DNA of 64,000 nt from an uncultured Lachnospiraceae bacterium (GCA_946537305.1 CAMNFR010000002.1:48564-112563); one strand, 5' to 3'; shown: positions 20,144-47,989, counted from the stretch's first letter. Numbers and translations are program-made. The notes: generated by a model not told the origin, from the letters alone.

Positions 20144-20205
20144 AGTGTGTGACGATCGGTAGTGGAATTGTCACATAAAAAACACAAAAAATATTACGGA
20201 AATGT

Positions 20206-20234: not shown

Positions 20235-20283
20235 AGTCTTATTATGGATTTGCGAATGATGTCGCAAAAGATCGGGGGATCAT

Positions 20284-28908: not shown

Positions 28909-28932
28909 TAAGAGCGGTAAAATGGCGGGAGG

Positions 28933-29178
28933 ATGCAGACAATGAAAACATTGGAAGAAGAGATCAAAGCCCAGAAAATAGAAACTATACGAAAAGACGG
29001 GATGTTCCGCCTGCTTGGAATCGTGGTGGTGGTGGCAGCAGTATATTTTGCCATACAGTTTGTTCATGCAGATTTTAAGATACTGACGTTCCTGAATCCG
29101 TGGGCGAGCGCAGTTATGCAGCTGATCGGCGATCTGCTGTATCCCATCAGTGATCTGCTGCGTGAACTGATACCGTAA
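28933..29178 (+). CDS. Small single-TM protein between the two GTPase genes
   Basis: 81-aa ORF with one hydrophobic segment (FRLLGIVVVVAAVYFAIQF). The start is ambiguous (ATG 28933 or 28942). Confidence 0.5.
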   Translation: MQTMKTLEEEIKAQKIETIRKDGMFRLLGIVVVVAAVYFAIQFVHADFKILTFLNPWASAVMQLIGDLLYPISDLLRELIP

Positions 29179-29250
29179 CACCGTGCGGCAGACTGCAAAA
29201 TAATTAGCATGATATAAAGTGTAACATAATAACTGTCGGGAGGAAAGAAT

Positions 29251-31003: not shown

Positions 31004-33262
31004 ATGCAGCTTTTGTATGGAAATGACGGCGTCAATTACAGGGTGATCGATAAATCCGCCGAAATGACGGACGGCGTGCAGAAAACGCTGCTGGGATCCT
31101 ACTCCCGCTACGATTTTGTGACGGATCCGAAGGTCTATTCCTCCGTGGCGCAGGAGCCGGAAGCGATAACCTATGTTTCCACTAACCTGGACAATCAGCT
31201 GAAAAGCGACCAGGTGGTGGTCTGCAAAATGGGGCACATGCGTAATTTTTCCTCTCCCAGCTATTATTTCCACGGTCTGGTGAAGGAAGTCCCTGCGGAT
31301 TATTATAAGAAGGACTTTTTTGAACTTTTCGGCTATCAGTTCATTCCGGATGTGGAGGCCAATTCCGCACATTACAGCGGGGGAACGGTGGATGGATATC
31401 AGTTTCCCGTACAGCCGGTCAACCAGAAAGCATTGACCGACGAACAGCTGATCGTGATTCTGGCAAGCTTTCTGTCCAATGACAAAAAGGGACAGAAAAC
31501 AAAGATCCTGTGCGATGCTTCCGGGGATGATTATAACCGTCGCAGCCGCGAGATCCTGGCGTCGATCTATCATTATCTCCCCTATGAACTTCGCAAACGC
31601 TATGGCTTCAAATCTTACAGCCAGGATGAGAAGAATCTTCCGGCGCGTGTTGCCTTTGTGGTTTTCCCGAAGGAAGAAGTACACGATGTGACTGGATTTG
31701 TCACCCTGCAGGAATCCCGGGGAGACATAGCGCATTCTGTGGAGCGCGAATACCTTGATTACGCAGCCTATCTGGTGGAAAAACTGGATGATTCACAGCG
31801 TACGGAACATTTTGAGACCATGTCCAAGCTGGCGAGTAACGGATATCTCCGGATCAAGGACTGCGTGGATTATTACAACAACCTGAAGAACTGGTCCAAC
31901 GGGACGCAGGAAGCGCTGCTGCCGGACTGGATTCAGTATATCGATCAGAACAGCTTCCGCAAAGGGCCGCTCTATGAGATGCTGCTGAAGATCATTGTCG
32001 CTAAGGTGGATAACGCATATTACAATGATTACCTGTTTGATCAGACATTGAGGCTGTATCAGGAGAACGTATACAATCTGTCTCCCCAGGCGGCCAAGAC
32101 CATGCGCTTCGCGGACTGCCTGGATGAGATCTTTATCGAACCTGCCCGGTTCCATGAGTGGTATCAGGAGCAGCTGCAGGCAAAGATCAATATGCTTCGA
32201 CCGGAACAGAAGGAATCTCCGGTCTATATGGCAGGCTTTTATGAGGAAGAGATCCGCGCCTTGGAACAGGTAGATATCATGAGCGAGGAGCTGAAGGAGC
32301 TTCTTCAGACAGAGGTGCAGAATCTTCGGGCAAAGATCCGCAGCAACGCGGCCAATGTGGAAGAGCAGAAGGACCGGGAGGTTGAGGAACTGCATCGCCA
32401 GGTCAGCAAGATCGGCAGAGTGGAGGATCTGGTGTCGATGGTCGAGATCCTGCGCCGCAATATTCAGTTTGCTGAAAATAAAGAAGTGCTCACGGCGAAT
32501 GTGGAAGAGTGGCTGGCGGAACATATCCCGGACAGAATCACTTCCGAAAGCGAGTTGCGGATCTGGAAAGAACAGGTGGAGAAGCTTGGTGGAAATATTT
32601 CCGCGGAAATGCAGGAAAACATCCTGAGGGAGCTGGCGAGAGAAGAACAGCTTCAGATCCAGGCGAGAGAGTCTCGCAAATGTGTCATCCGGCCGGGGGA
32701 GGTCCTGAGATCCTATCGGAACCTGGTGGAATATCTGGCTAAAGGCGTGCTGCAGCCAGAGGATAAGGTGATAGCTGAGATCGGGAAAAGAGCACCGAGT
32801 GAATATAAAGCTTCTACCATGTTGAAAATGCTTAGCTTTATCCTCTATCCGGAGGATGAGTCCCAGGGCAGTGTCTCGATTGCATGGAAGCGCGTGTTCC
32901 TGGAAGAGAAGCTGATGACGGCGGAACATGCTGAATATCTGCTGAAGGATCCGGAAGCAGAGGAGGAGTTTGTTAAAAGAGTAGTGCACTTCTTCCTGAA
33001 GGAAGATTCCGTCAGGATCTCCGGCATCTATCTGGCAAGACTGATTCAGCGGTATCATCCCGAGCTGAATGCCATGTTCCGAAAACTCTATGAAAAGGGA
33101 GAGGACGAGGAGTACTTCTTCTCGGATGAACTGAAAACGCTGTCAGCATCTGCCCCCAAACGGAGCAACTGGGCTTATGAGACAGAGTCGGAGCCCCAGG
33201 AGGATCATTCCAAACAAGGAAAGAAAGGATCACTGGGGGGCCTGTTCGGAAGGAAATGGTAA
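31004..33262 (+). CDS. Large hypothetical protein (coiled-coil-rich C-terminal half)
   Basis: I prefer ATG 31004 (SD ggacaggagg; 1 nt after the upstream stop) over the ORF-track start 30947. That gives 752 aa with no recognised family. The N-terminus MQLLYGNDGVNYRVIDKS is worth testing against GTPase-associated (GAP1-type) N-domains. Confidence 0.7.
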   Translation: MQLLYGNDGVNYRVIDKSAEMTDGVQKTLLGSYSRYDFVTDPKVYSSVAQEPEAITYVSTNLDNQLKSDQVVVCKMGHMRNFSSPSYYFHGLVKEVPADYYKKDFFELFGYQFIPDVEANSAHYSGGTVDGYQFPVQPVNQKALTDEQLIVILASFLSNDKKGQKTKILCDASGDDYNRRSREILASIYHYLPYELRKRYGFKSYSQDEKNLPARVAFVVFPKEEVHDVTGFVTLQESRGDIAHSVEREYLDYAAYLVEKLDDSQRTEHFETMSKLASNGYLRIKDCVDYYNNLKNWSNGTQEALLPDWIQYIDQNSFRKGPLYEMLLKIIVAKVDNAYYNDYLFDQTLRLYQENVYNLSPQAAKTMRFADCLDEIFIEPARFHEWYQEQLQAKINMLRPEQKESPVYMAGFYEEEIRALEQVDIMSEELKELLQTEVQNLRAKIRSNAANVEEQKDREVEELHRQVSKIGRVEDLVSMVEILRRNIQFAENKEVLTANVEEWLAEHIPDRITSESELRIWKEQVEKLGGNISAEMQENILRELAREEQLQIQARESRKCVIRPGEVLRSYRNLVEYLAKGVLQPEDKVIAEIGKRAPSEYKASTMLKMLSFILYPEDESQGSVSIAWKRVFLEEKLMTAEHAEYLLKDPEAEEEFVKRVVHFFLKEDSVRISGIYLARLIQRYHPELNAMFRKLYEKGEDEEYFFSDELKTLSASAPKRSNWAYETESEPQEDHSKQGKKGSLGGLFGRKW

Positions 33263-33265
33263 ATC

Positions 33266-34405
33266 ATGAGGTATAAATATGTTTCACACCTGACAGATCT
33301 GAAGGATCTGAAACACATAGAGTGGTTCGTTCTTCACAGTCAGGAATATGAATTTGCAACAGACCGGGCCAGAACGCTCCGGGATCGCCTGCAGAAAAAT
33401 ATTCATAAGAAAAACATTCTGTACTCGGAGATCGTCACGGACTATGAGGAGCTGGTGCGGCATTTTGACAATGATCTTTACCATTACCAGTTTGAACTGA
33501 CCGGTGAGGACCCGGACAAATGGCTGTTCAGCAATATTCCGGTAAACTATTTTGTGCCTGCCGAGGATAAGGATGGAGGCCAGTACACGGTTCCCTATCA
33601 GTATATCGTGGAAAACCGCATCAATTATGATTTTGTGGAAATGAGCAAACGTCACACGCAGCTGCTCTCGGACAGCCAGAAACGGGCCGAAAGTACCTTC
33701 CAGGCGGTGCAGGATCATTACATGAGATACTGGGTAGGCGGCGGTGTGCGGGATGCGCTGGACCGCTATCAGGGGATTCGTTACGGAAGTGATTATCACA
33801 TCCTGCGCACCGTACTCCTCTTTGTGCTCTACAACATCCTGTTGGGCATTGCCCTGCAGGAATCTCAGTTCATCGGGATCCTTACACATCCCTGGCAGCT
33901 GATATCCACAGAGGCAACGGCACAATTTGCGCCGTATAATCTGTTTACCGGACACAGAGTTCTTGGGATCATCGCGTTCCTTCTGGTGCTGTATTTTGTC
34001 TTTATGGATGCGGTCTATGCCTACGGCATTTACTACATGATCTATATGAAGCAGAAATACGGTATGGTAAAGAAGTATCACGAAGAAGTGCTCCGGCTGT
34101 TGGAACCCTTCCAGAAAGACTTTGAACAGTGCCGAAAGGGAATCACCGGTCCCGTCAGTAAAATCAGGAACAGGGACAGCGTGTATATCCCTCTGATCCG
34201 GAAGGTCAGCCGCGGATATGATTTTACCTCCGGGAAAATGGCACCGGCAGAAAAGGGAGAAACGCCGCAGCCACTGCTGCAGTCTGTGCGGGTGCCTGTT
34301 CCGGGATTTTACACCAGGCCGATTCATAAGTGCCTGATCGGGCTGGTGATCGCGCTGATCTTTATCACCGCGATATGCAATCCGTATAATATGATACTTT
34401 TCTGA
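33266..34405 (+). CDS. Membrane protein, no recognised family
   Basis: 379 aa, starting 3 nt after the upstream stop. The soluble N-terminal half is followed by at least 3 hydrophobic segments. Confidence 0.7.
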   Translation: MRYKYVSHLTDLKDLKHIEWFVLHSQEYEFATDRARTLRDRLQKNIHKKNILYSEIVTDYEELVRHFDNDLYHYQFELTGEDPDKWLFSNIPVNYFVPAEDKDGGQYTVPYQYIVENRINYDFVEMSKRHTQLLSDSQKRAESTFQAVQDHYMRYWVGGGVRDALDRYQGIRYGSDYHILRTVLLFVLYNILLGIALQESQFIGILTHPWQLISTEATAQFAPYNLFTGHRVLGIIAFLLVLYFVFMDAVYAYGIYYMIYMKQKYGMVKKYHEEVLRLLEPFQKDFEQCRKGITGPVSKIRNRDSVYIPLIRKVSRGYDFTSGKMAPAEKGETPQPLLQSVRVPVPGFYTRPIHKCLIGLVIALIFITAICNPYNMILF

Positions 34406-34460: not shown

Positions 34461-36722
34461 ATGAAGAAGCGAATTCTGATATTGGGAATGGTCCTGGCCA
34501 TGCTTGGCTCCGTTTTCAGCTTCCCGACGTCCAATGTTCGCGCGGAAGATGAAAACAAAAATAAGAAGCTGGATCTGGTCATGGTTCTGGATAAATCCGG
34601 TTCCATGAAGGGAAACGACCCCAATGGTTTAATGAAGACAGCGGCCAATATGCTGACGGCCATGATGCCCGCCAAATCCGGGCGCGTGGGCGTGGTTGCC
34701 TTTAACATTAAATCGGAACAGGTGGTAGGCCTGACCGAGCTGACCGACGTGACGTCTGTGAATGATATCATGGGCAAGGTCAGCACCATCAAGTATAAAG
34801 GGGATACCAACATCGGCGACGCTGTTTCCGATGCAGTGGATATGTTCGACTTAAACGATGACCACGTGCACGCGGTGCTGGTGCTCTCCGACGGCAAACC
34901 GGATTTCGGTCTGGATAAGAACGCGGAGCAGGCCAGTGATGAACGGCTGAACGATACGCTGGCCAAGATCAAGGGTAAGGAGTGCTACATCTATGCCCTG
35001 GGATTCGGCAAGGACATGGCGGATACCAATGATGTTCCGTACAAAAAGCTTTCAAGTATTGTCACTTCCCCGGAGACCATATCCACGGAAACCGATCCCG
35101 CAAAGATTCACGAATTCTTTGTGAAGATGCTGCTGGATCTGATCGGGGCCAAGATCCCGGAGATCTATGACAATAAGATCCCTATCGAGCCGAATGTAAA
35201 GGAAGCCAATATTTACATCAGCTCCGCGGAGGACATGACGGATGTGACAGTGGGACTGACGGATCCCTCCGGGAATAGCATTCCCATGGAAAACAGTGAA
35301 AAGGTGTGGTTCTTTAAGGACAGCTATTCTGCTGTGATCAAGCTGTTTGACCCCGCGCCGGGGGAATACGTCATCAGTACGTCCCGTGAGGATATCAACA
35401 TCACGGTCGGCTATGTGCCGTTCTATGATTATACGCTTCGCAGTGAGATCGTGGACGAGACCGGCGTACCGGTGGAGAAACTGGATAACGGCAAGACAGT
35501 GGAGATCCGCACCTGCCTCAGCCAGGAGGAGCAGGACGTGACCGAGCCGATGGCTTACGATAATGTGACTGCTATGGCTACGGTAACGGCGAAGGACACC
35601 GGCGAGAGCGTAGAAGTGCCGCTGACATTCCGGGATGGGATGCTGCGCGGCAATATGAGCTTTGAGCGTGTGGCCGCCTACACGGTGGATATCCGCGTGG
35701 AGTCAGAGACCTTCGACCTGAAGGATCAGCTTACGGTGGAGACCAACCAGCGCGGTTTTGGCTGGGCACCCGGACAGACCGGCGTGGATCTGATCGAAAA
35801 GAAGATCCTGGATAAGACCCTGAAAAAAGAAGTGACCCTGCTGGTGGATAATCAGGAGCTGATGGGGGCTATTGAAGATCCCGACGGCGTGGGCGTAGCT
35901 CTGGATCAGGTGACTTCCAGTGATGAGGAAAAGGTTACGGCGGAGATCACCAATGACGGAATACTGCTGACCGGTAAAAAGTGGGGGTCTTCTCTGATTA
36001 CCGTTACGTACCGGGATGGTCTGGGCAACACGCTGGAGACTTCCTTCACCACCAGCGTGAAAGATAAGATGCTGATCGCGTTCTTTGCCGCGCTGCCGGT
36101 GCTGCTGGGCCTGATCGCCGCGCTGGTCGTTTATCTGATCATGCGGCAGTCCCGTATGATCCGCGGAGATTTTGAGATCACCCGTGTGACGATTGACCGC
36201 GGTGACAGCGATGTATCCATCATCTCCATTCCCAAGAGTTACAAGGGCAAGACCTTTGTGGGGCGGAAGAAGACGCTGGGCAACGGCGTGTCCCGATACG
36301 CACAGGATGTATATTCTACAGACGGCACCCTGCTGCAGGTACAGCAGCTGTACCAGATGTTCTCCAACACCCAGTCCGAGATGCGCCAGAACCTGGATAC
36401 CTTCCAGTTTATCGGCAGCTACCTGGGCCGCAATGGCTGCAGCATCAAGGTGAAGAAGGGATCTCCTGTGTCCCTGTCCAATAACCGCAGCTACCGCCAG
36501 GCTGTCAAGATGAAGTGGCCGCAGAAGGCGACGTTCAAGGTGTTCACCAAGGATGCTTCCGGGACGGAGATCTGCGTGGAAGGCCGCTACGCCATGGGCC
36601 GCAAGGCCGGTGCCTCCGCCGCGAAGGGCGGAAAAGGAGGAAGAGGCGGACGTCAGAATGCCGCTCCCACGCCGCCGCCTGTACAGAATAACAACGATTT
36701 TGACGAGGATTTCTTCAGTTAA
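34461..36722 (+). CDS. Secreted/type-I membrane vWA-domain protein with cytoplasmic tail
   Basis: 753 aa. It has a signal peptide (MKKRILILGMVLAMLGSVFSF..VRA) and a vWA MIDAS motif (LDLVMVLDKSGSMKGND). A single TM (MLIAFFAALPVLLGLIAALVVYLIM) lies near residue ~540. A ~190-aa tail follows, ending in a Gly/Lys-rich stretch plus NNNDFDEDFFS. Confidence 0.85.
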   Translation: MKKRILILGMVLAMLGSVFSFPTSNVRAEDENKNKKLDLVMVLDKSGSMKGNDPNGLMKTAANMLTAMMPAKSGRVGVVAFNIKSEQVVGLTELTDVTSVNDIMGKVSTIKYKGDTNIGDAVSDAVDMFDLNDDHVHAVLVLSDGKPDFGLDKNAEQASDERLNDTLAKIKGKECYIYALGFGKDMADTNDVPYKKLSSIVTSPETISTETDPAKIHEFFVKMLLDLIGAKIPEIYDNKIPIEPNVKEANIYISSAEDMTDVTVGLTDPSGNSIPMENSEKVWFFKDSYSAVIKLFDPAPGEYVISTSREDINITVGYVPFYDYTLRSEIVDETGVPVEKLDNGKTVEIRTCLSQEEQDVTEPMAYDNVTAMATVTAKDTGESVEVPLTFRDGMLRGNMSFERVAAYTVDIRVESETFDLKDQLTVETNQRGFGWAPGQTGVDLIEKKILDKTLKKEVTLLVDNQELMGAIEDPDGVGVALDQVTSSDEEKVTAEITNDGILLTGKKWGSSLITVTYRDGLGNTLETSFTTSVKDKMLIAFFAALPVLLGLIAALVVYLIMRQSRMIRGDFEITRVTIDRGDSDVSIISIPKSYKGKTFVGRKKTLGNGVSRYAQDVYSTDGTLLQVQQLYQMFSNTQSEMRQNLDTFQFIGSYLGRNGCSIKVKKGSPVSLSNNRSYRQAVKMKWPQKATFKVFTKDASGTEICVEGRYAMGRKAGASAAKGGKGGRGGRQNAAPTPPPVQNNNDFDEDFFS

Positions 36723-36747
36723 AGTAGTATGCATTTATAATATATTG

Positions 36748-36756
36748 TGCTATAAT
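36748..36756 (+). promoter_or_regulatory. Extended -10 promoter candidate (TGcTATAAT) upstream of tubulin-like paralog 2
   Basis: tgtgcTATAATtatg lies in the 96-nt gap between 36722 and 36819. The -35 is poor. Confidence 0.3.
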
Positions 36757-36818
36757 TATGATGTTGGCCTGTGATGGCCGTAAGATCGAAGTAAAACAGC
36801 GAAAGGAGAACTTAGGAA

Positions 36819-39800
36819 ATGGCTTTAAGTCCGCTGAAAAAAGAAAAGCTGGCGCAGCTGGAGCTGAATAAGGGAGGTGTGGCGTTCGTATCGCAGAAAT
36901 CCTCTGTGACGCCGAATCCCACGGTGATCATCAGTCTGGGCGGCCTGGGTGGAAAGACCCTGAATGCCCTGAAGGGCAAATTTGTGCGTGAGATCGGGGA
37001 GAGCGATCATATTTATTTCCGAATGATCGATACGTCTCTTCCGGACATGGATGATCTGTGTAAGGTAAAGTCGGACGGAACCATGAATACTTCTCCGAAC
37101 GCGCATCTGGAACAGATAGAGGCGGTGCCGATCTTTGATCCTGCGATCGCAAATATCCTGAAGGCCGGCTCCATTCCGCCCAACATCAAAAACTGGCTGA
37201 ATCCGGCGCTGATCGGTACGGAACTGGATAACTCCGGTGCCCAGCAGATCCGCCAGATCGGCCGCGCGATGCTGACCAACGACACCGTGTATTTCAATGT
37301 CCGCACCAAGCTGAGCTCTGCAATTCTGAGTGCCATCGGCCAGATGCCGTTTGGCGGCAATGTGGACGTCATCCTGATCGCCGGTGTATCCGGCGGTACC
37401 GGCAGCGGCACGGTGATCGACCTCAGCTATATGATACATGACATCTTCAAATCTGCGGGAAGCACCAGCTATAAGCTGGCGGGCTATATCTTTACCCCGG
37501 ATGCTCAGTTCATGATTCCGCAGATCAAGAATAACCCTACGACGCTGCTGAATCTGAAGAAGAACGGATATGCGGCCCTGAAGGAAATCGATTACTTCAT
37601 GAATATCCAGGAGACACAGAGTGTCTATAAGCTGGAGCTCGGCTCTTCGGCGGTCACCTCCACCAAGAACATCTTCAGCAGCTGCACGCTGGTCTCCGGC
37701 TATGCCTCCGGCGGCGGCATGAACGATACCGATGTGACTATCGGCCGTCTGACCGATCAGCTGATGGATATGCTGACGGATATTACCATCACGGACAAGG
37801 GCGGCATGCCGCAGCAGATGTCCGCCTCCATTTTGAGCAATGAGAACGCCAACCTGAATTCCTGGTTCGGACTTCATCCGGCGCGCCGGATCTATCACCG
37901 CTATGCTTCTTACAAATATCAGGTGCTGGGGTACAATTCCATCGTGATTCCCCGGGATGAGATCCTTGCGTACTGCGTGAACAAAATCTATGCCGGCGTG
38001 CTGCAGGAGTTCCAGAATTTCTCGCTGGTGAACAAGCAGATGATGCAGAAGGTGTTCGCGCAGACGAATGTGATCAACCCGGATACCTTTGTGCAGTTTG
38101 CGACAACCATCAACGCGAATAACCCGATCAACCGCACGCTGGTCATGGACGGCGGCTACACCAAGTCTATGATCAAAAATGATCCCATGATCGCCTATAA
38201 CGATGCGGTGGATCTGGCGCATGCGGAGCGCGTGAAAATCAATGGCGGCTTCCAGGCCATGGTGGAGGATCATGTTTATAAGGCACTGTCCCAGGAAGTG
38301 GATAAGATCTTCAATCAGTTTGGTCCGTACGTGGCCATGAAGGCCATTGAGCATAAGCACACGGAACTGAGCGTGGGAGATCCCAAGGAACCCTTCCCCG
38401 GTATTATTGAAATGCTGGAGCGGCAGAGCGAAAAGCTGATGGCCCGCGCCAATGCGGCGAACAACGCATTTAACAATGGCGGGCATCAGCAGATCCAGGC
38501 GGCGGCCAATGAGGCTATGGGCGGTCTGTTCGGGACCAACCACGCCGCGGTGAACAACTATGTGGAGATCTGCTGCAACCAGGCGGTGACCTCTCAGATT
38601 GATGTGGTCCTGTTTAAGACCCTGTCCGATGCGCTCTACAATGTGGCGGTCCGCATGAACAAGCTGAATTCCGACCTCTTTGAGGTGTATACCAGCATCC
38701 TGACCGAAATCCAGAAAATCCTGAACCAGGACGGCCAGTACTTCTCGAATTCCAATATGTCCCAGGTGGGCAATAACCGCTACTTCTCCATCGATATCAT
38801 TAAGAGCGGCAAGGGGAAAGCTGACCGGCTGGAAAAATACCTCGATAGCTTTATCTCTACAGTATCCGTACAGGAGCTGGCGCAGAACTTCATTAAGAAG
38901 ATGCGTGATAACCGTGACAAGTGGGTGGCCCAGAACAGCGAAAATGATTTCGACGTGGTGGCCGAGGTCCGCGATCTGATGGATGACTGCTTGAATTCCA
39001 ACAAGATGACCACGGATATTGTAGAAAAATTTGTGACGGTCGCCTACAGCACCAAGGACATGAAGCCGGAAGAACTGGATGCCATCTGGGATGACAACAC
39101 GCCGACCGGTCCTAAGATGCAGGCACTGGCCTCCGCCGCGAATGAGATCTACCAGCAGCTCTCCAACGGAGCGCAGCCCATGGCGAATTCCACGGGTCAG
39201 ATCCCGCTGAACAGCTTTGCTGGACAGCTGTTTATCAGTACGCTGAAGGATACGCCGCAGCTGACAAATATCCTGAATAATCTGGTCAAGGGGGCGCAGG
39301 GATTTACGCCGGCGACCAGTGATTCCAAGAATAAATTCATCTTTACCCGTCAGTATATGAGCCTTCCCATGTATATTCTGTTGGGCATGGGTGAGTACAA
39401 CCAGGTATACGTGGAAAACCCGAGCGCGGGACGCCACATGGACGAGAACAACCAGAACTGGGGCCGGTTCCCGAACCCCTACACCATCGATTCCGTGGCG
39501 ATCGATCTGGCGACTGCCCAGCGGCCGGCAGAGGATATCGAATCGTATCCGGATTACAAGGTGCTGACCGATGTGAAGGCCAAAGCCACGGACGGCGTAA
39601 AGAAGTATGGGTTCATCAATGTGCAGGTGGATGCCACCGGTATGGGACATATGTATCTGAATGACATTACAAATACGCCGGCGGATATGGAAGCCTTTAA
39701 AGAGGGATTCTACAATGCGCTGATGAAAAAGAAGAATCTGGATGTCATTGAGTACATGAAGCAGAACGGGTTTATTATCAATCCGATTGAGGTGACACGC

Positions 39801-40481
39801 GGTCAGACCGATGTGGATCTCTCTCTGCTGGATTTTGCCGATGCCGCACCGGCGGATCTGTCCGGAATGTATAAGGATATCCCCGTGAACATCCCGGATG
39901 TATACAAGTGGCTGAGAAAATCCATCAAATACATGGACATTCTGGATAAGGACACGGCTATCTTTGAAGAATTGCAGGAAGTCATTGACAGGGCAGAAAT
40001 AAATCGCCATGCCAAATCAAAATTCATTGATGATGTGGAAACCTTTGCGTTTGCGCTTCGCACCGGCATGGTGAAGCAGAACGAAAAGAACCCGAAGATC
40101 TGGAATTACATGGACGGCAAGGAGCCGGTGGCCGTGAACTTTGGCCGCGCCAAAGCGTTTGACCGGAAGTATTTCCTGTACCACGTGTTCGTGAGCTTCC
40201 AGCAATTGGATGATAAGCGGCTGCAGGCATATAACGCACAGGCGGGCAAGAAGATTGACGAAGGCGCGGAGATCGATTACGAATTCCTGAGCGACCACAT
40301 CAGCGAGATGCTTTCCGACAGCGAGCTGGGGGATGTATTCAACAGTGAGGTCGTGAATGAAGAAGCTGAGGAACAGGGCGTCACGGATAACTATCAGGTC
40401 ACGGACCGAGCGGAAGACAAGGGCAACCCCTACAAGGTGCTGAAGCGCTTCTATGAACTGATCCAGACAAGCTTCGAATAA
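36819..40481 (+). CDS. Tubulin/FtsZ-superfamily GTPase-like protein (Tubulin_2 / FtsZl-1-like), paralog 2
   Basis: 1220 aa with a strong SD (gaaaggaga). It carries VIISLGGLGGKTL, ILIAGVSGGTGSGTVIDL (37383-37412; GGTGSG tubulin signature) and KKNGYAALKEIDYFM. The ~900-aa C-terminal extension has no family I recognise. Confidence 0.85.
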   Translation: MALSPLKKEKLAQLELNKGGVAFVSQKSSVTPNPTVIISLGGLGGKTLNALKGKFVREIGESDHIYFRMIDTSLPDMDDLCKVKSDGTMNTSPNAHLEQIEAVPIFDPAIANILKAGSIPPNIKNWLNPALIGTELDNSGAQQIRQIGRAMLTNDTVYFNVRTKLSSAILSAIGQMPFGGNVDVILIAGVSGGTGSGTVIDLSYMIHDIFKSAGSTSYKLAGYIFTPDAQFMIPQIKNNPTTLLNLKKNGYAALKEIDYFMNIQETQSVYKLELGSSAVTSTKNIFSSCTLVSGYASGGGMNDTDVTIGRLTDQLMDMLTDITITDKGGMPQQMSASILSNENANLNSWFGLHPARRIYHRYASYKYQVLGYNSIVIPRDEILAYCVNKIYAGVLQEFQNFSLVNKQMMQKVFAQTNVINPDTFVQFATTINANNPINRTLVMDGGYTKSMIKNDPMIAYNDAVDLAHAERVKINGGFQAMVEDHVYKALSQEVDKIFNQFGPYVAMKAIEHKHTELSVGDPKEPFPGIIEMLERQSEKLMARANAANNAFNNGGHQQIQAAANEAMGGLFGTNHAAVNNYVEICCNQAVTSQIDVVLFKTLSDALYNVAVRMNKLNSDLFEVYTSILTEIQKILNQDGQYFSNSNMSQVGNNRYFSIDIIKSGKGKADRLEKYLDSFISTVSVQELAQNFIKKMRDNRDKWVAQNSENDFDVVAEVRDLMDDCLNSNKMTTDIVEKFVTVAYSTKDMKPEELDAIWDDNTPTGPKMQALASAANEIYQQLSNGAQPMANSTGQIPLNSFAGQLFISTLKDTPQLTNILNNLVKGAQGFTPATSDSKNKFIFTRQYMSLPMYILLGMGEYNQVYVENPSAGRHMDENNQNWGRFPNPYTIDSVAIDLATAQRPAEDIESYPDYKVLTDVKAKATDGVKKYGFINVQVDATGMGHMYLNDITNTPADMEAFKEGFYNALMKKKNLDVIEYMKQNGFIINPIEVTRGQTDVDLSLLDFADAAPADLSGMYKDIPVNIPDVYKWLRKSIKYMDILDKDTAIFEELQEVIDRAEINRHAKSKFIDDVETFAFALRTGMVKQNEKNPKIWNYMDGKEPVAVNFGRAKAFDRKYFLYHVFVSFQQLDDKRLQAYNAQAGKKIDEGAEIDYEFLSDHISEMLSDSELGDVFNSEVVNEEAEEQGVTDNYQVTDRAEDKGNPYKVLKRFYELIQTSFE

Positions 40482-40499: not shown

Positions 40500-42305
40500 A
40501 TGAAACTTTTACAGAGAGAGACCGTGAATAAAGCAGGGGTCAAGGCGGAGATCGATGCGGTCTGCCGGAACCTGCTGACGGAAAGCGTGCATGAGTATAT
40601 CAGCACACCGGTGGTCATGGTGATCTATCTGGGAGAGGAATCTTACCGCGTTGTAAACGCATCTCTTCGGGATGCGTTTACAACTTCTTTTAAGGTAGAA
40701 CCCAGTGTTTATGAGATCACACTGGAGGATTCCTGTGCTGGGCCGGAGGTCATCTACGAAAGGATCACGGAACAGATCGCGGAGGCTGCCAATAACGGGA
40801 AAAATTACGAGGATACCCGTTTTGTCTTTGTGTCTGTGATGGATGATCCCATTTTTGAATCAGGCGGAGAGGCGTTGATCGAGGGGCTTCGCGGTGCCTT
40901 TGAGGAGCTGTCGAATGTTTCCGTGAGCACCAAAAAGACTTCCTTCTATGGTATTTTCCGGCAGGCCAGGCGCAAGGTGACCCGGAATGCATCCTTTGCC
41001 TTTGTGAATGCGGGAAAGGATCTGTGGCGGAGCATCTACCACATGGAGGTTCCCTTCTTCGCGAAGGAAATCAATTTGTACACACAGCTGATTGCCATTC
41101 ACTGTATCGGGGAAGATTACACCATGGTGCAGGAACCCGGCACGGCAGAGTATGCCTGGAAATCCCTGAATCTGAAGCAGCTGAAACTGCCGGAGCTGAT
41201 GATTGCCCGCGTGCTGCGGGAGATCTATGCCAGGCAGATGAACGGCAAGAATATCAATTATGATGAGTGGACCGAAAATATCGGCGCGGAGCTGGAGAGC
41301 CTGTTCGATCAGCTGCTCTCACAGCCGGAACATGGGTATGAACAGTTCATTCCTCTGAATTACCGGCCGGAGGAGCCGGTGCAGGAAGTGCGGACGGGGC
41401 TGTTCGGGAAATCCCGGCAGCAGGAGGTAAAAACTTCTTTCCATGGTGATGTGATCAGGGATGAAGCCTCTCTTGACCGGCTTCTGCAGGAGCTTCTGGG
41501 CGATATTTCGCTCACGGAGGAAGAGTGTGACGATATGCTGGAGACCATTACCAGCTCTGCGACCTCCATTGATAACGACCATAACCGCATCTCCCAGTTC
41601 GTAAGGGAGTACCTGACCCGTCAGATCGGGGAAGTCAGGACCAGGGCGGAAAATCTGCGGTCCCGTAATCAGCGCAGCAGTGCCGAGGCGGACAGTGTTT
41701 CTGCGCTGCTGGCACAGACCTATCAGCGCAAAAAGGAGCTGATGGTGCTGCAGAAGAAGGCGGAGATCCTGGAGTTCCTGGTACAGCAGCTTTCTTCCGG
41801 CAATACTATGAGCCGCATTGTGTCGGACATCTATAAGAAAAACAAAGAATGTACCGATATTCTGGATGAACTCAGCAAGAACCAGTACGGCGGCACGCTG
41901 GAACATGTATCTGTGAGCGGTCTCCCTGCCTTCCGGGTGAATCAGACGGTCCACGCCATCTTAAAGGGCATGGAGAACAGCAAGCTGTATGAGATCATCA
42001 ATAATGAAGAAGCTATTCTGCAGCAGCTGGAGCGGTTCCTGGCCGCGAGCACGAACGCCGTCGGAGGCCCGAAGGAACACAATTTGGGAGAGATCAACGG
42101 CATTTACAATCAGTTGGAAAACATTCAGCGAGAGCTTTTAATGACACCAAACCAGGCGGCAGATCCTAAGGTAAGCGAGCTGGTGAAAAGATTCGCCGGC
42201 CTTTCCGTCAGGACCGGCAGTCTGTACCGGGAGAATACCTTTTATATTATCTCCTTCCGGAATTATACGAGCGACCGCTATATTTATCGTTACAGAGAGG
42301 AATAA
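40500..42305 (+). CDS. Hypothetical protein (possible degenerate tubulin-like partner; low confidence on that idea)
   Basis: 601 aa with an SD (taaggagc). It follows paralog 2 after 18 nt. VVMVIYLGEESYRV and FVFVSVMDDPIFESGGEALIEG sit where T1 and T4 loops would be, but the glycines are lost. Confidence 0.7.
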   Translation: MKLLQRETVNKAGVKAEIDAVCRNLLTESVHEYISTPVVMVIYLGEESYRVVNASLRDAFTTSFKVEPSVYEITLEDSCAGPEVIYERITEQIAEAANNGKNYEDTRFVFVSVMDDPIFESGGEALIEGLRGAFEELSNVSVSTKKTSFYGIFRQARRKVTRNASFAFVNAGKDLWRSIYHMEVPFFAKEINLYTQLIAIHCIGEDYTMVQEPGTAEYAWKSLNLKQLKLPELMIARVLREIYARQMNGKNINYDEWTENIGAELESLFDQLLSQPEHGYEQFIPLNYRPEEPVQEVRTGLFGKSRQQEVKTSFHGDVIRDEASLDRLLQELLGDISLTEEECDDMLETITSSATSIDNDHNRISQFVREYLTRQIGEVRTRAENLRSRNQRSSAEADSVSALLAQTYQRKKELMVLQKKAEILEFLVQQLSSGNTMSRIVSDIYKKNKECTDILDELSKNQYGGTLEHVSVSGLPAFRVNQTVHAILKGMENSKLYEIINNEEAILQQLERFLAASTNAVGGPKEHNLGEINGIYNQLENIQRELLMTPNQAADPKVSELVKRFAGLSVRTGSLYRENTFYIISFRNYTSDRYIYRYREE

Positions 42306-42308
42306 ACA

Positions 42309-43724
42309 ATGGCAGCCAGAGGTACCAGAAATACAACCAATTCCCTGAATAAAGGTGTACTGGTCATCAGTGCGGCGGCTGGCGTCGTGGGCAGCTTTGT
42401 GTCCGGTCTGATTTACCGGATCATCAGCCCGATGATGTGGAGTCCGCTCGCTGTGGGCATCAGCTTTATGATCTTCGCAGCTGTGCTGATCGGGATTATG
42501 GTGGTGGTGAACCTGCTGAATGATAATCTGGGATTTCATGTCAGCAAATTTCATGACGGCGGGCAGATCATCCTTACACTCATCGGCTTTATTCTGGGAG
42601 CGCTGATTTTGGGGACGCTCTTTGAATTCATCTATGAGATGAACTTCTTTGAGGGAAAGAAGGGGTATCAGGAGCCGACTTCCTATGTATTCCTGATCGA
42701 CAATTCAGGATCCATGGACAGCAGTGATCCCGAAAATGTCCGCTACGCCGCTATAACTCAGATTATCAGCGGCAAAGAAGACAGTTTCCCGTACGCGGTA
42801 TATGGATTCAGCAACGGGGTAGAGGTTATGCGGGAGCTGGCACCTATATCTGCCGGCAACAATGAATTGACCGGGATAGCCTCCGGCGGCACCGAAATCC
42901 GCGGTACGCTCACCCGTCTGTACGAGGAGTATGAGAATGGGCTGAAGGACCAGCTGGGCGAAGCCCCCAAGTTCCTGCTTCTTTCAGACGGCTATGCCAC
43001 GGATATCGGCTGGTTTAGTTCTATCAATAAGATTCTGAAGGAATACGCCAAAACAAATATAGAGATTTCTACGGTAGGTCTGGGGGAAGCAGATGATGAA
43101 TTGATGCAGCAGATCGCGGATGATACCGGCGGCGTGTATATCAGTGTCAACGATGTGAACCAGCTGGAACAGTCCATGTCGCAGGCAATCTCCAAATCCG
43201 GCGCGAATAAATATGCCAGAACGCTGTATACCCTGCGAAATGTTCCTTCGCTGAACTTCCTGTATGCTCTGATGCGTATTGTGTTTACGGCCATTCTGGG
43301 CGTGGGCATTTCCTGCTCTATGCTGTTTGCTACCGGCAAGGGAGATGACAGCGATAAGATCGTTACGACCTCCATCATCACCGGTGTGCTTGCAGGCTTG
43401 GCATTGGAACTTCTGATCAACGGTATCCCGCTTCCGCCGAATCTTGTACGTTACCTGTACTTTATTCTGGTAGCGCTTACCTTTATTACTGAGATGGGCT
43501 TTGGCGGAAACGGCAGAGGCGCAAAGTATAAGGATGCGGACGATATGCTGGGAGGCGGCGGACGCATGCAGATGGGCGGGAAACAGAACCTGCGCAATAC
43601 CGGCGCCGGAAATACCGGCGGAGATATGGATGATCTGATGGGCGGCGGCACATCCGGGGGACGATCCGGCGGTGCATCTTCCGGTGGTTCATCCTATGAC
43701 GATGATTTCTTCAATGACTTCTAG
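42309..43724 (+). CDS. Polytopic membrane vWA-domain protein with Gly-rich tail
   Basis: 471 aa. About 3 TM segments come first, then the vWA MIDAS motif (YVFLIDNSGSMDSSDPEN), then about 3 more TM segments. The tail is Gly-rich and ends SSYDDDFFNDF. Confidence 0.85.
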   Translation: MAARGTRNTTNSLNKGVLVISAAAGVVGSFVSGLIYRIISPMMWSPLAVGISFMIFAAVLIGIMVVVNLLNDNLGFHVSKFHDGGQIILTLIGFILGALILGTLFEFIYEMNFFEGKKGYQEPTSYVFLIDNSGSMDSSDPENVRYAAITQIISGKEDSFPYAVYGFSNGVEVMRELAPISAGNNELTGIASGGTEIRGTLTRLYEEYENGLKDQLGEAPKFLLLSDGYATDIGWFSSINKILKEYAKTNIEISTVGLGEADDELMQQIADDTGGVYISVNDVNQLEQSMSQAISKSGANKYARTLYTLRNVPSLNFLYALMRIVFTAILGVGISCSMLFATGKGDDSDKIVTTSIITGVLAGLALELLINGIPLPPNLVRYLYFILVALTFITEMGFGGNGRGAKYKDADDMLGGGGRMQMGGKQNLRNTGAGNTGGDMDDLMGGGTSGGRSGGASSGGSSYDDDFFNDF

Positions 43725-43733: not shown

Positions 43734-44315
43734 ATGATTACCGGATTACAGGTAGAGACAAAACATGATGATACCCGGGTGCTGCGCGCGATCAAGGAAA
43801 ACCGCAACGACCAGAACCAGTATCTGGTGTATCTGAATCCTAATAAAAACGGACTTTTGGCCGGAGGCGCCGAAAAGGGGCAGGCAATCCTGATTTCCGC
43901 CGGCGCCAACAATCCCAATCTGATTTCCTACGATTTCCGCCTGAAACGCGGACTGTATGATGTGGTGATTGAGCGTATTGAAAGCATTGCGGGAGGAGAA
44001 ATTCACACGGACCCGGAATCCCGATACGAGTATCCGGACCCCGTGATGGTGGGACAGCGTTATCTGGTGCGTTCCAAGGTGGAAGATACCGTCTGCTATG
44101 GCGAAGCCGGCGTGCGGGTCCGCATCCAGAGCGTGGAGGTCCCGCTGGGGCCGGAAATGGTCTATTACGTGATCGACAGAGATGAACTGAAAGACATAAA
44201 ATATTATGTTCCCTTTCACGATGAGAAGAAGATTGATTTCTTCGTCAAAGGGGTACAAAGCGGTGAGATGCAGCTGTATCTCGGCAATCCGAGCTTTCAG
44301 ATCGAACGGATATAG
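43734..44315 (+). CDS. Hypothetical soluble protein
   Basis: 193-aa ORF with an SD (aggagg) and tight spacing. No recognised family. Confidence 0.65.
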   Translation: MITGLQVETKHDDTRVLRAIKENRNDQNQYLVYLNPNKNGLLAGGAEKGQAILISAGANNPNLISYDFRLKRGLYDVVIERIESIAGGEIHTDPESRYEYPDPVMVGQRYLVRSKVEDTVCYGEAGVRVRIQSVEVPLGPEMVYYVIDRDELKDIKYYVPFHDEKKIDFFVKGVQSGEMQLYLGNPSFQIERI

Positions 44316-44336: not shown

Positions 44337-45257
44337 ATGGGTTCATTTGACAGCTGGGACGACTGGGACGATGATTTCAGTGATACCGGCACAGGAAGCC
44401 AGAATCAGAATACAGGAGGCCGTCGGAGCAGCTTTGATGATGATTACGGCAATCAGGGCGGCGGCGATTTCGGAGGCAGCGGAGGCAGCCGCAAGGGCGG
44501 CAGCTACCCCGTGCCACGGGATGAGGACCAGTACGGTGTGCGGCCGCAAGGCCCCGGCCGCGGCGGTTACACACCACCCGCGCAGCAGACAAGTGATGAT
44601 TCAGGCGTCTATGTGATCCGCAGCATCTCGGAAGTGCCGCTCTCCGGACAGGGAGCACTGAGTAAGATCTTCCGGGGCATCCCCTTCACGGCGAATAATC
44701 AGATCAATATTTCTCTGCAGGAAGCCGGGAGCCTTGGCCACGGAGGCGGCGCTATTAATGGCATCATTTACGGTAAGATTGAAAATCAGGCGTTAGGGCC
44801 CGGTATGCGGGTGAAGATCCGGGGAACGGTCAAGCGCGGCCAGATCATCATCAAGGACCTGTATGATGTAGACAGCGGCGGCCTTCCGATTGGCATCAAT
44901 CCCTACTGGGTGGATCCGATGTATCAGCAGAGCTCATCCAACCGAAGGGGAAATCCGGCTGCGATGGCAGCGGTCCTGGCAGTGATCGCTATACTGGCTG
45001 TTGCGTTTTTCCTCCTTCGAGGCGGAATCGATCCTTCAACATTGAATAAGATCAAGATAGCGGCGATCATTATCGGAGCACTGGTCTTCATCAAAGTGTT
45101 CAACATCAACATTTTTAACAACTCGTTTGTGCAGAAGGTGATACTGATCGTGGTGCTATGCGCCATCGCCTTGTACGTCCCCGGCGGGGACAGTGTGATG
45201 GTGTGCGCCATCATGATTTTTGGTCTGTATATCATGCTGAAGGGAATCATAAAATAG
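44337..45257 (+). CDS. Membrane protein with N-terminal acidic-Trp motif and Gly-rich linker
   Basis: 306 aa. The N-terminus is MGSFDSWDDWDDDFSD (44346-44378), followed by a G/S/N-rich region. The C-terminal third has 3 hydrophobic segments. Confidence 0.65.
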   Translation: MGSFDSWDDWDDDFSDTGTGSQNQNTGGRRSSFDDDYGNQGGGDFGGSGGSRKGGSYPVPRDEDQYGVRPQGPGRGGYTPPAQQTSDDSGVYVIRSISEVPLSGQGALSKIFRGIPFTANNQINISLQEAGSLGHGGGAINGIIYGKIENQALGPGMRVKIRGTVKRGQIIIKDLYDVDSGGLPIGINPYWVDPMYQQSSSNRRGNPAAMAAVLAVIAILAVAFFLLRGGIDPSTLNKIKIAAIIIGALVFIKVFNINIFNNSFVQKVILIVVLCAIALYVPGGDSVMVCAIMIFGLYIMLKGIIK

Positions 45258-45301: not shown

Positions 45302-47989
45302 ATGGCGAATGGAAATTATGGATCATTGCTGCGGGAGGATTATTCCAACGACTATGTCGTGACCCACAAGAATGACATTATTTCCCGGAATGCGCTGGAT
45401 GATCCCTTTTATCAGGGACGTCAGGTGGATCTGCCCCATATTCAAAAAGGCCAGCTTTGTCGGGTTTCCAACCAGGAGATGGCCTTTTTTCAAATACGGG
45501 GAATTTCCCGCTTCTGGGGAGAACAGGAAGACTTTGATATTAATGGAGTGATGTCGGATCTGCTCTGCGGCCTGAACAAGGAAAAAATGGGCTATGCCTA
45601 TATTCTCCGGGGAGATCGCAGCGGCATTCGGATATGCATTGGCATCGATTCATATCTGATCGAGTCTCTGAAAAGCTCGCTGATGTCCCTGTTCCCGAAT
45701 ATAAGTCTGGAACCGGTGGGGCTGGGGGACGTGGTCCCGCAGAGTATGACGGACGGCGGCATAGTTACGGGCATTCCCACGAACAAGCTTTCCGGAGACA
45801 AGCCGGGCGATGTGCAGATCGATCACATCATCCGCGGCATGGTGGGAAAAGATTTTGTCTATGTGGTATATGCTTCGGGAATCGCGCCTTACCAGGTGAC
45901 GGGATGGCATAATGCGCTGCTGCAGGAAATGTCCCATGCCTTCGAATACCAGAAAAGCGGTATCAGTGACAGCGGTACCACCATCGATAAGCAGAGCTTT
46001 GTGCACACCCGCTACTTTGAGAATCTGGAAGAACTGGAACGCACCTATCATGTAGGTCTGGAGCGTGGCATGTGGTATTACACTGCCTATTTCGGGGTAA
46101 ATGATGATGCCTCCGGAGAGGTGTTCGGCAATCTGATCCGTTCTACGTTTTCCGGGACGGAATCCCGACCGGACAAGGTCCGCACGCTGTACCATGCGAA
46201 GCCTCAGGTGATCCTGCGCCTCATCCGGAGCGGCATGCAGCTGCTGGATACCCTGGAAGACGGGATGTCTCATCCGCTGGGGGAGAGCGCCGCATATAAA
46301 TATCAGTCCATTATCAACAGTGATCAGCTGGGCGTGATCAGTGCGCTTCCTATGAAGGAGTACCCCGGGTATTATATTGATAACTACGTGGAATTTGATG
46401 TATCCAACCGACCTCGCTATAAGATTGAAGAACCGGTGCCCATCGGGGATATCATGAACGCCGGGCGTGCCGTCCCTACCGGGGTGCGAAACAGGTATTC
46501 TATCGAAAAGAATGATTACACCAGGCACTGCCTGATCATAGGCATCACGGGCGGCGGCAAGACCAATACCAGTAAATCTCTGCTGCGGACGCTGTGGCGG
46601 CAGCCGCCGGAAAAGAGGATCCCTTTCCTGGTCATCGAATCCGCTAAGCGGGAATACTGGGAGCTGCGCAATCTGGAAAACTTTGAGGATCTGATGGTCT
46701 ACACATTAGGGTCCGAGGATCCGGAAAAGGCTGTGCGGTACCGTCTGAACCCCTTTGAGACGCTGCCTGGGATTTCGCTGCAGAGCCACATCGATCTTCT
46801 GCTGGCCACCTTCAAAACGGCCTTTGAGATGTACCCGCCCATGCCGTATGTGCTGGAAACGGCGGTGTATGAGGTCTATAAGGATCGTGGCTGGAATATT
46901 GTGACCAACAAGAATGATTACGGGCTGACGCGCTACCCCACGCTGAGCGATCTGTACGACAAAATCGGCTATACCGTAGAGAACATGGGCTATGATAAGG
47001 AAGTCTCCTCCAATATCCGGTCGGCTTTGGAGGCACGCATCAATTCGCTGATGATCGGCGGTAAAGGGGCCATGCTGAATACGCCCAAATCGATCCCCAT
47101 CGAATCTCTGCTGAGCTATCCAACGGTGCTGGAGCTGGAAGACATCGGAGATGATGAGACCAAATCCTTTGTTATCGGCATTCTGCTGGTCCAGCTGTAT
47201 GAGTACCGGAAATACCAGAAGGATAAGATCAACGGTGCCAAGAAACTGCAGCATATCCTGATGGTGGAGGAGGCGCATCGCCTGCTGAAAAATGTTTCCG
47301 AATCAGCGAATCCGACGCAGGCCAAGTCTGTGGAATTTTTCTGCAACATGCTGGCAGAGATCCGTACGTATGGGCAGGGAATCTTTATTGCGGATCAGAT
47401 TCCCACCAAGCTTGCTCCGGATACCATCAAGAACACCAACCTGAAGATCGTGCACCGCACGGTGGCAAGGGAAGACCGGGAGACCATCGGTATGGCCATG
47501 AACATGACGCCGGAGCAGATCGAGTATCTGAGCTCGCTGCCCCGTGGGTTTGCTGCGGTCTATGCCGAAGGAGATAACCGGCCGAAATGTGTGAAGCTGC
47601 CGCTGGTAAAGGACAAGTATTCCCTGACCAGAGAGCAGGTGATCGGTCCTATCCGCAGCAAGGTGGATAACCAGTTGATTGATGATTTTAAAGAGATGCA
47701 CTGCGGCTGTACCTACTGCGAGCAGCGCTGCCGCTTCGGCGAAGCCATAAAGAAGAATCTTTCGGCGGTTAATATGGCCGGAGGGATTGCGGAAATTGAA
47801 AAACATAAGTATAATGTAACCGTAATCGATAAATTTATCTCCTTCCTGGAGCAGAAAAAAGTGATTTCCTGCGAAGGAATTCACGGCCGGCTGTGTGCGG
47901 CGGGATTCCTGTTGGAAAGATGTAAGTTAGATCGTGGTTATAAAAAGAAAATTCTGGCAGGGTATGTCCGCTATCTGTCAGAGAAATAG
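45302..47989 (+). CDS. HerA/FtsK-like (DUF87-type) P-loop ATPase
   Basis: 895 aa. Walker A is IIGITGGGKTNTSK (46541-46564) and Walker B is HILMVEEAHRLL. GIFIADQIPTKL and KIVHR follow downstream. The C-terminal region has a Cys cluster (CGCTYCEQRC). Confidence 0.8.
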   Translation: MANGNYGSLLREDYSNDYVVTHKNDIISRNALDDPFYQGRQVDLPHIQKGQLCRVSNQEMAFFQIRGISRFWGEQEDFDINGVMSDLLCGLNKEKMGYAYILRGDRSGIRICIGIDSYLIESLKSSLMSLFPNISLEPVGLGDVVPQSMTDGGIVTGIPTNKLSGDKPGDVQIDHIIRGMVGKDFVYVVYASGIAPYQVTGWHNALLQEMSHAFEYQKSGISDSGTTIDKQSFVHTRYFENLEELERTYHVGLERGMWYYTAYFGVNDDASGEVFGNLIRSTFSGTESRPDKVRTLYHAKPQVILRLIRSGMQLLDTLEDGMSHPLGESAAYKYQSIINSDQLGVISALPMKEYPGYYIDNYVEFDVSNRPRYKIEEPVPIGDIMNAGRAVPTGVRNRYSIEKNDYTRHCLIIGITGGGKTNTSKSLLRTLWRQPPEKRIPFLVIESAKREYWELRNLENFEDLMVYTLGSEDPEKAVRYRLNPFETLPGISLQSHIDLLLATFKTAFEMYPPMPYVLETAVYEVYKDRGWNIVTNKNDYGLTRYPTLSDLYDKIGYTVENMGYDKEVSSNIRSALEARINSLMIGGKGAMLNTPKSIPIESLLSYPTVLELEDIGDDETKSFVIGILLVQLYEYRKYQKDKINGAKKLQHILMVEEAHRLLKNVSESANPTQAKSVEFFCNMLAEIRTYGQGIFIADQIPTKLAPDTIKNTNLKIVHRTVAREDRETIGMAMNMTPEQIEYLSSLPRGFAAVYAEGDNRPKCVKLPLVKDKYSLTREQVIGPIRSKVDNQLIDDFKEMHCGCTYCEQRCRFGEAIKKNLSAVNMAGGIAEIEKHKYNVTVIDKFISFLEQKKVISCEGIHGRLCAAGFLLERCKLDRGYKKKILAGYVRYLSEK

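Follow-up and report, generated by a model that had tools for sequence, protein, structure and literature searches.

We describe a tubulin-like protein, Tub2, encoded in a 64,000-nucleotide (nt) stretch of DNA from an uncultured Lachnospiraceae bacterium (GCA_946537305.1, CAMNFR010000002.1:48564-112563), referred to here as the window. Its gene occupies positions 36819-40481 of the plus strand and encodes 1220 amino acids (aa); a paralog, Tub1, is encoded 17 kb away. Tub2 is a tubulin/FtsZ relative of the FtsZl1 (Tubulin_2) family, and we favour, with moderate confidence, the view that it constitutes the core FtsZl1/Tubulin_2 protein of a Firmicutes-type GAP1-N2 DO-GTPase conflict system working by the stepwise mechanism proposed below. 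Membership in such a system is suggested because DO-GTPase2, GAP1-M, two vWA and HerA genes lie in one same-strand cluster, whose genes from 13056 to 47989 are all on the plus strand.

The family assignment comes from the Pfam profile Tubulin_2 (PF13809), which matches aa 37-393 of Tub2 with E=1.9e-49 and 169.3 bits (cut-off 27) over model positions 2-353 of 356. An AlphaFold2 (AF2) model covering aa 1-900 and built on 42 aligned sequences gave a predicted local distance difference test (pLDDT) of 87.7 and a predicted template modelling score (pTM) of 0.77. When this model was compared with the PDB by Foldseek, the top match was CetZ1 (4b46, E=1e-5), followed by dozens of FtsZ chains; the top 50 matches were mainly FtsZ, with CetZ at ranks 1 and 4 and one tubulin. 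The alignments comprise 350-390 columns at 11-12% identity, with TM scores normalised to the target of 0.42-0.52. Since they span the whole 300-335-aa cores of the targets, an FtsZ/tubulin fold is predicted not only for the nucleotide domain but also for a second, beta-rich domain at aa 270-376. The model points to a two-domain FtsZ/CetZ-like fold formed by a Rossmann-like nucleotide domain, a core helix and the beta-rich second domain; the long helix at aa 240-260 contains NGYAALKEIDYF. These results uphold the superfamily identity that an earlier note had proposed for this gene. At the sequence level, no FtsZ_C or Tubulin_C match was found in Tub2 with Pfam, no PDB sequence relative was retrieved with either the single sequence or a 40-sequence profile, and NCBIfam gave no match for eight cluster proteins. 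Compared with FtsZ and CetZ (4b46, 8gzv, 1ofu), Tub2 shares the two-domain fold and the T1 and T4 glycine loops, but it has no recognisable T7 loop, carries 800 extra residues and is found in a context other than cell division.

The three peptides that the earlier note had picked out in this open reading frame (ORF) were all located: VIISLGGLGGKTL at aa 36-48, ILIAGVSGGTGSGTVIDL at aa 185-202 and KKNGYAALKEIDYFM at aa 247-261, with nucleotides 37383-37412 corresponding to G189-T198. In an alignment of 40 Tub2 orthologs, reaching down to 21% identity, G41, G42 and G44 of the T1 loop and G189, G192, G193, G195 and G197 of the T4 loop are invariant, as are N249, K255, E256 and D258. The T4 loop of tubulins has the PROSITE signature [SAG]-G-G-T-G-[SA]-G, and SGGTGSG at aa 191-197 fits it. 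Tub2 probably binds GTP. The spacing between both glycine loops is ~151 aa in Tub2, close to that of eukaryotic tubulin, and ~122 aa in Tub1. The ~150-aa insert described as common to both paralogs needs correction in this sense: additional residues between T1 and T4 are typical of the family and no special insert.

Makarova & Koonin 2010 (PMC2875224), who defined FtsZl1, described an FtsZ-like domain at the N-terminus, followed by a coiled coil and an alpha-helical C-terminal domain, inserts between T1 and T4, and vWA and GTPase operon partners; T6-H7 and the second domain were not recognisable by sequence. Tub2 agrees with this description in its strong Pfam match, its coiled coil and alpha-helical C-terminus, its extra T1-T4 sequence, and its operon with vWA genes, divergent P-loop GTPase genes and many membrane proteins. 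It differs in that its model shows a second, FtsZ C-terminal-like beta-rich domain that was not found in the 2010 sequence analysis, and in that its clade adds an acidic extension of ~340 aa and a conserved G-x-H-x-D-E motif. In the AF2 model, helices run across aa 379-800, one of them 69 residues long (575-643), and a small alpha/beta domain follows, which closes with G871-x-H873-x-D875-E876 (39429-39446). All aligned orthologs have G871 and H873, nearly every clade retains G-x-H, and the motif reads PGLHLDEE in Tub1. The acidic extension is conserved among orthologs, shortened in relatives of ~1030-1060 aa and absent from Tub1. About 900 C-terminal residues had been set down as belonging to no recognised family. 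That description holds only for aa 882-1220, which are ortholog-specific; up to aa 881 the protein aligns with Tub1, and this part is conserved family-wide. Tub2 has no transmembrane (TM) segments and is predicted to be soluble; most of its 134 homologs are ~1200 aa long. An antisense ORF inside the gene (36825-40010, minus strand, 1061 aa) was rejected as a gene and attributed to codon bias, because the sense gene has only two TTA/CTA/TCA codons; CTG accounts for 72 of its 91 Leu codons.

The setting of Tub2 is known from a comparative study. Kaur, Burroughs, Iyer & Aravind 2020, eLife (PMC7159879) reported that ~52% of GAP1-N2-type DO-GTPase systems centre on tubulin genes and that these tubulin-centred systems are restricted to Firmicutes and Actinobacteria. 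In Firmicutes they comprise two tubulin genes with a C-terminal coiled coil and two vWA genes, one fused to YtkA and the other encoding a multi-TM protein with its vWA domain outside; the GAP1 protein has a polar tail, and a conflict role is argued for the whole. The architecture of our locus is already published as the 'tubulin theme' of that study, which the earlier note had missed. In agreement, the window comes from a Firmicutes host and contains two DO-GTPase genes, a putative GAP1-like gene, two Tubulin_2 genes with a helical C-terminus and two vWA genes, one of them multi-TM. The DO-GTPases match PF19993 with E=1.9e-8 (34.7 bits) and 3.3e-6 (27.4 bits) against a cut-off of 27. Both vWA proteins are predicted to expose a vWA domain bearing a metal ion-dependent adhesion site (MIDAS) to the outside. 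The window differs from the published systems in that GAP1-M is sub-threshold, GAP1-N2 was not detected with Pfam in the 31004-33262 protein, and Pfam at E<=0.01 showed no YtkA domain in vWA protein 1. With phmmer, the 31004-33262 protein matches the ORFs at the GAP1 position of related loci, and its Paenibacillus counterpart carries GAP1-N2 at 1.3e-44. The HerA/FtsK ATPase, the 601-aa gene, and the STAND gene with the extra tubulin are unmentioned in the text of that paper.

Matches in GTDB species genomes numbered at least 526 in our scan; the best 79 loci belong to Thomasclavelia and other Erysipelotrichaceae, Lachnospiraceae, Oscillospiraceae, Ruminococcus, Paenibacillus, Brevibacillus, Bacillus and Priestia. 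Altogether 84 loci were fetched, 82 of them non-redundant, and their features were scored by phmmer against the locus ORFs. A vWA gene lies upstream of the tubulin in 69 of the 82 loci and a vWA-TM gene downstream in 68; both together form a vWA, tubulin, vWA-TM triad in 63/82, and a DO-GTPase is found within 10 kb of the tubulin in 63/82. The conserved unit is vWA, tubulin and vWA-TM, usually with a DO-GTPase nearby. Tub2 had been taken to head a second sub-module; as an evolutionary unit this is not supported, the conserved block starting one gene earlier, with the vWA gene at 34461. HerA homologs occur in 9 loci, and an FtsK_SpoIIIE protein is found at the same place in L003/L004. These latter loci also carry Peptidase_M15 and NADase_transloc genes between vWA and tubulin, and the FtsK_SpoIIIE and an LHH toxin gene downstream (7959-9979; 19489 onward). 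In L005 (9340-15966), an additional copy of the tubulin lies among Macro, Metallophos, TatD and Tpt1 (PTS_2-RNA) genes. TIR fusions occur in some Tubulin_2 proteins (L085 3849-7409, P0122 and P0129); the TIR-fused tubulin of L085 has other TIR genes, an FtsW/RodA-TIR fusion and a HipA toxin gene as neighbours. The TIR fusions and the TIR and HipA neighbours fit an immune role for parts of the Tubulin_2 family. No relative of Tub2 was found in viral contigs, so there is no sign of phage origin.

The gene that follows Tub2 may encode its partner. That a 601-aa ORF starts 18 nt downstream and is followed by a vWA membrane protein, as the earlier note stated, was borne out (starts at 40500 and 42309). 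In Paenibacillus-type loci, the tubulin is followed by a gene for a 780-860-aa protein; taken one by one, 30 of 40 such proteins match Pfam Tubulin_2, the only recurring family, with a best E of 6e-6. They are collinear with the tubulin, showing FLFIGDK at the place of T1, RVDDPxNVLVPE at T4 and FLRELxxxQ at ALKEIDYFM, and G-x-H-[DE][DE] is present near the C-terminus of 25 of the 40. By its sequence, this Paenibacillus gene is a degenerate tubulin paralog without glycine loops. The 'second tubulin' of Kaur et al. 2020 probably corresponds to such loop-less paralogs. The 601-aa protein occupies the same locus position and belongs to a small family (1.84 billion proteins yield 37 clusters at 50% identity). 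In its AF2 model (pLDDT 77, pTM 0.74), a Rossmann-like N-domain of alternating beta and alpha elements is joined by three long helices and an alpha/beta domain at the C-terminus, a plan as in Tub2. Comparison of family profiles with hhalign gave collinear alignments at probabilities of 1-20%, with E=0.001-0.04 for the tubulin and 0.003-0.05 for the Paenibacillus family. The N-domain hidden Markov models (HMMs) cross-match reciprocally (in a database of 74 sequences, 15 of 47 members of the Paenibacillus family score E<0.1), and a fold search includes tubulin chains among its matches at a probability of 0.93-1.0. Three results count against this reading: no fold match reaches E<=1e-3, none of 23 family members matches Pfam Tubulin_2, and the gene is lacking in loci of the Ruminococcus/Oscillospiraceae type, in which the tubulin has vWA-TM as its immediate downstream neighbour. 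With these values and the hhalign probabilities, the 601-aa protein is not established as a tubulin derivative, and we judge it only slightly more probable than the contrary that it is a degenerate tubulin-like one.

As a working mechanism, Tub2 would bind GTP and assemble into homo-oligomers or filaments under the membrane through its FtsZ-like core and its helical module. Its coupling to the vWA proteins would run through their cytoplasmic tails, with the DO-GTPase/GAP1 pair acting as the switch of Tub2, so that an event sensed at the envelope would be turned into cytoplasmic assembly of Tub2. This assembly may represent the threshold-setting platform of the conflict system, as in the proposal of Kaur et al., and may recruit or activate downstream components that vary between loci: HerA/FtsK in the window, and NADase, Macro, phosphoesterase, DNase or toxin genes in related loci. 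The most likely direct partner of Tub2 would be the 601-aa product, possibly a tubulin derivative without nucleotide loops. A conflict role is supported because effector-like genes are inserted in related loci and some family members are fused to TIR. Several observations weigh against the whole proposal. In the ortholog alignment, a canonical T7 catalytic loop was not located in Tub2, the loop at aa 261-269 after the long helix being variable, so polymerisation-activated GTP hydrolysis is putative. The PADLOC defence models do not match either tubulin, the 601-aa protein or the vWA proteins, and its HerA and mad8 models match the ATPase only; as PADLOC has no model for the tubulin, it gives no direct support for a defence role. 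No toxin or nuclease effector is obvious in the window. In the literature searched, no experimental work on FtsZl1, DO-GTPase or tubulin-like anti-phage systems was found, only the two computational papers cited here.

A housekeeping role has to be considered as well, in which the system would be a membrane-remodelling or vesicle-forming cytoskeleton and not an immune or conflict device. This was the hypothesis of the original paper (Makarova & Koonin 2010), and it agrees with the many membrane proteins of the cluster, with a window free of nucleases and toxins, with the stability of the triad in Paenibacillus, Brevibacillus and Bacillus chromosomes and with the lack of any prophage or viral association among our results. 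We nonetheless regard it as unlikely, given the patchy distribution of the system, the highly variable gene content around a small core, the effector-type genes (NADase, Macro, TatD, LHH, TIR) in or beside related loci, the presence of STAND and HerA genes, which are typical of defence islands, and the arguments of Kaur et al. for a conflict role.

Another possibility is that Tub2 is a GTP-regulated scaffold or switch that does not polymerise and stays a monomer or dimer, with the helical C-terminal module doing the assembling. The question of polymerisation was left open by Makarova & Koonin 2010, who list 'do not form filaments' as one option, and both the lack of a conserved T7-like acidic loop and the 800 non-tubulin residues with their 69-residue helix would fit it. 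We consider this quite unlikely, since all characterised members of the superfamily form filaments according to the same authors and the predicted fold includes a second, activation-type domain besides the nucleotide domain. Conserved acidic residues are present near the loop after helix 240-260 (E256/D258, D313 and D380/E381), none of them within it, and E256/D258 or D380/E381 could replace T7. The peptide KKNGYAALKEIDYF was tried as the T7 loop and rejected, being placed in the long helix after strand S5 and too near T4. Helix H5, the A-x-x-G-x-x-x-L region of FtsZ, is its more probable counterpart, in keeping with the alignment of Makarova & Koonin reaching only up to H5.

Regarding Tub1, BLASTP aligns its aa 7-813 with aa 1-881 of Tub2 (E=6e-51, 23% identity), so the homology reaches far past the GTPase domain, and the paralogy proposed in the earlier note stands. 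In a collection of 5.8 billion proteins, Tub1 has a single relative, 98% identical, the next-best match being the Tub2 family at 22% identity; a metagenome scan for Tub1 relatives returned nothing. The TTA/CTA/TCA codons amount to 23 per 1000 in Tub1, against ~2 per 1000 in Tub2 and 2-10 in the other cluster genes tested. The gene starts 10 nt past a STAND NTPase gene. On a neighbour-joining tree, Tub1 formed a long branch whose nearest neighbour is a TIR-fused Tubulin_2 protein; the 13-kb contig of the latter holds TIR-domain genes and gave no DO-GTPase or vWA match. Tub1 is thus an uncommon and divergent copy, and we infer that it represents an accessory of its own, either acquired recently or evolving fast, and tied to the STAND NTPase. 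The segment 13056-19452 may be a separate STAND-tubulin module beside the DO-GTPase system.

With a GTPase-domain profile HMM, a single full tubulin was found within +-10 kb in 80 of the 84 loci. Only four contigs (L003/4, L005, L014 and L025) hold a second one within 10 kb, L005 being counted as a pair though its first copy is cut at the locus edge. The second copies differ in position (upstream, in tandem, or downstream past HerA beside Macro, phosphoesterase, TatD and Tpt1 genes), and on the tree each pairs with the partner from its own locus as sister or near-sister; for this reason they are taken as independent duplications. An obligate Tub1/Tub2 heteropolymer in the manner of alpha/beta-tubulin or BtubA/B, or two parallel filament systems with different membrane partners, as the earlier note proposed, is very improbable: the homology over ~810-880 residues with T1 and T4 kept in both, the shared strand and cluster, the 2-TM protein that follows Tub1 and the two tubulin genes of Firmicutes systems in Kaur et al. 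2020 speak for it, but pairs are limited to those four contigs, Tub1 essentially lacks orthologs, and its distance from Tub2, its codon usage and its position next to the STAND NTPase and not a vWA gene set it apart. The idea of two paralogous subunits, one of them possibly non-catalytic, is shared with alpha/beta-tubulin and BtubA/B; the difference is that the co-conserved candidate partner of Tub2 is the loop-less gene next to it (loop loss being shown for Paenibacillus and suggested for the window) and not the paralog bearing GTP loops.

We also analysed the expression signals around Tub2. The gap that precedes it contains, as noted earlier, an extended -10-like TGcTATAAT (36749-36757), and also a ribosome-binding site, AAAGGAGA. 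The numbers of promoter-like and terminator-like sites in the region equal those of shuffled sequence, TGcTATAAT being a consensus match only, and no terminator-like site was found within the 96 nt. The gap had been ranked as the second-largest of the cluster, which is not clear, since the gap at 20144-20283 measures 140 nt and that at 28909-29250 measures 342 nt, the latter unless a small ORF of 78-81 aa between the DO-GTPase genes (28933-29178), called as a gene in the source contig with no annotation, is real. The 96-nt gap is not a conserved module boundary, because the vWA-to-tubulin spacing is 14-18 nt in the orthologs L016 and L035 and the peptidase and NADase genes of L003 sit at this very junction. 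The gap may serve as an internal promoter, or it may be a junction for cargo insertion. Downstream, ~170 nt past the Tub2 stop, the 601-aa gene contains a hairpin with a perfect 16-bp stem and a 3-nt loop (-23.5 kcal/mol), followed by TTCTTTTAAG; it encodes the invariant peptide VVNASLRDAFTT. The hairpin was found in 8 orthologous loci (39-48% protein identity) with compensatory wobble changes; 93% of the alignment cells are paired, both partners vary in 6 pairs, and covariation scores 0.277, compared with 0.139 for shuffles, none of 500 attaining the observed value. The hairpin may be an attenuator within the gene, fixing how much tubulin is made relative to the downstream products.

Features of the Tub2 gene and of the surrounding cluster in the window
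Position	Strand	Feature	Remarks
13056-16970	+	DUF4062 and STAND-type NTPase, 1304 aa	directly upstream of Tub1
16981-19452	+	Tub1, 823 aa from GTG start	817 aa from ATG at 16999; T1 and T4 intact
19493-20143	+	2-TM protein	directly after Tub1
20284-25224	+	1646-aa protein	no Pfam, NCBIfam or other match
25221-25934	+	ORF	no Pfam match
25974-27350	+	ORF	no Pfam match
27367-28908	+	DO-GTPase	N-terminal zinc-ribbon-like Cys motif
29251-31002	+	DO-GTPase	N-terminal zinc-ribbon-like Cys motif
31004-33262	+	GAP1-like protein	GAP1-M E=7e-4, 20.2 bits, under cut-off 24
33266-34405	+	379-aa protein	three TM segments
34461-36722	+	vWA protein 1, 753 aa	signal peptide, extracellular vWA, MIDAS DKSGS, TM 539-557
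36723-36818	+	intergenic gap before Tub2	96 nt, possible internal promoter
36906-38012	+	FtsZ/tubulin-like core of Tub2, aa 30-398	Pfam, AF2, Foldseek, invariant residues
36936-36959	+	T1 loop LGGLGGKT, aa 40-47	follows strand 35-40 in AF2 model
37383-37412	+	T4 loop GVSGGTGSGT, aa 189-198	
38013-39218	+	family-specific helical module of Tub2, aa 399-800	AF2 secondary structure; common to Tub1 (BLASTP)
39219-39461	+	small alpha/beta domain of Tub2, aa 801-881	AF2 strands 802-809, 829-834, 839-849
39462-40478	+	acidic C-terminal extension of Tub2, aa 882-1220	net charge -20
40500-42305	+	601-aa protein	no TM segments
40650-40684	+	conserved hairpin, then T-rich tail	inside the 601-aa gene
42309-43724	+	vWA protein 2 (vWA-TM), 471 aa, multi-pass	MIDAS DNSGS between TM groups, tail YDDDFFNDF
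43734-44315	+	193-aa protein	no TM; conserved in the window's own clade only
44337-45257	+	306-aa membrane protein	acidic-aromatic N-terminus FDSWDDWDDDF (44346-44378)
45302-47989	+	HerA/FtsK-type ATPase, 895 aa	no TM; Pfam DUF87 E=6e-9; PADLOC HerA and mad8 models

Among the remaining genes, the 1646-aa ORF has a purine-rich coding strand (GC skew 0.36 and AT skew 0.45 at 20001-22000) and a low-complexity N-terminus; its product could be a variable repeat or sensor component of the system. Acidic-aromatic peptides are present on three membrane proteins, and low-complexity, partly Gly-rich stretches adjoin them: DFDEDFFS (36690-36719) ends the cytoplasmic tail of ~200 residues of vWA protein 1, YDDDFFNDF (43695-43721) lies on vWA protein 2 and FDSWDDWDDDF on the 306-aa protein. 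These tails are kept in the clade of the window (L001-L016) and not in the Paenibacillus or Ruminococcus clades, and they may be docking motifs for a cytoplasmic partner. A more elaborate, speculative and rather doubtful version of the mechanism would be an integrin-like outside-in device, in which a pair of one GTP-binding FtsZl1 tubulin and one pseudo-tubulin is docked through the acidic-aromatic tails to two membrane proteins that display MIDAS vWA domains outside the cell, a ligand bound at the envelope triggers tubulin-type polymerisation as an immune or abortive signal, and the hairpin sets the tubulin/partner ratio.

FtsZl1 is the most divergent branch of the tubulin/FtsZ superfamily and occurs in hundreds of Firmicutes genomes, as the number of matches in our single scan denotes. 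We found no solved structure or biochemical study of its members. Conceptually, our locus contributes little that is new beyond Kaur et al. 2020. The analysis sharpens the picture of the family in three respects: a second FtsZ domain is predicted, the unit is vWA, tubulin and vWA-TM, and the likely partner of the tubulin is the product of the adjacent gene. Among cultivable hosts, Priestia megaterium S2 has a related locus at ~6.36-6.38 Mb of CP051128, and related loci are also present in Paenibacillus and Thomasclavelia spiroformis.

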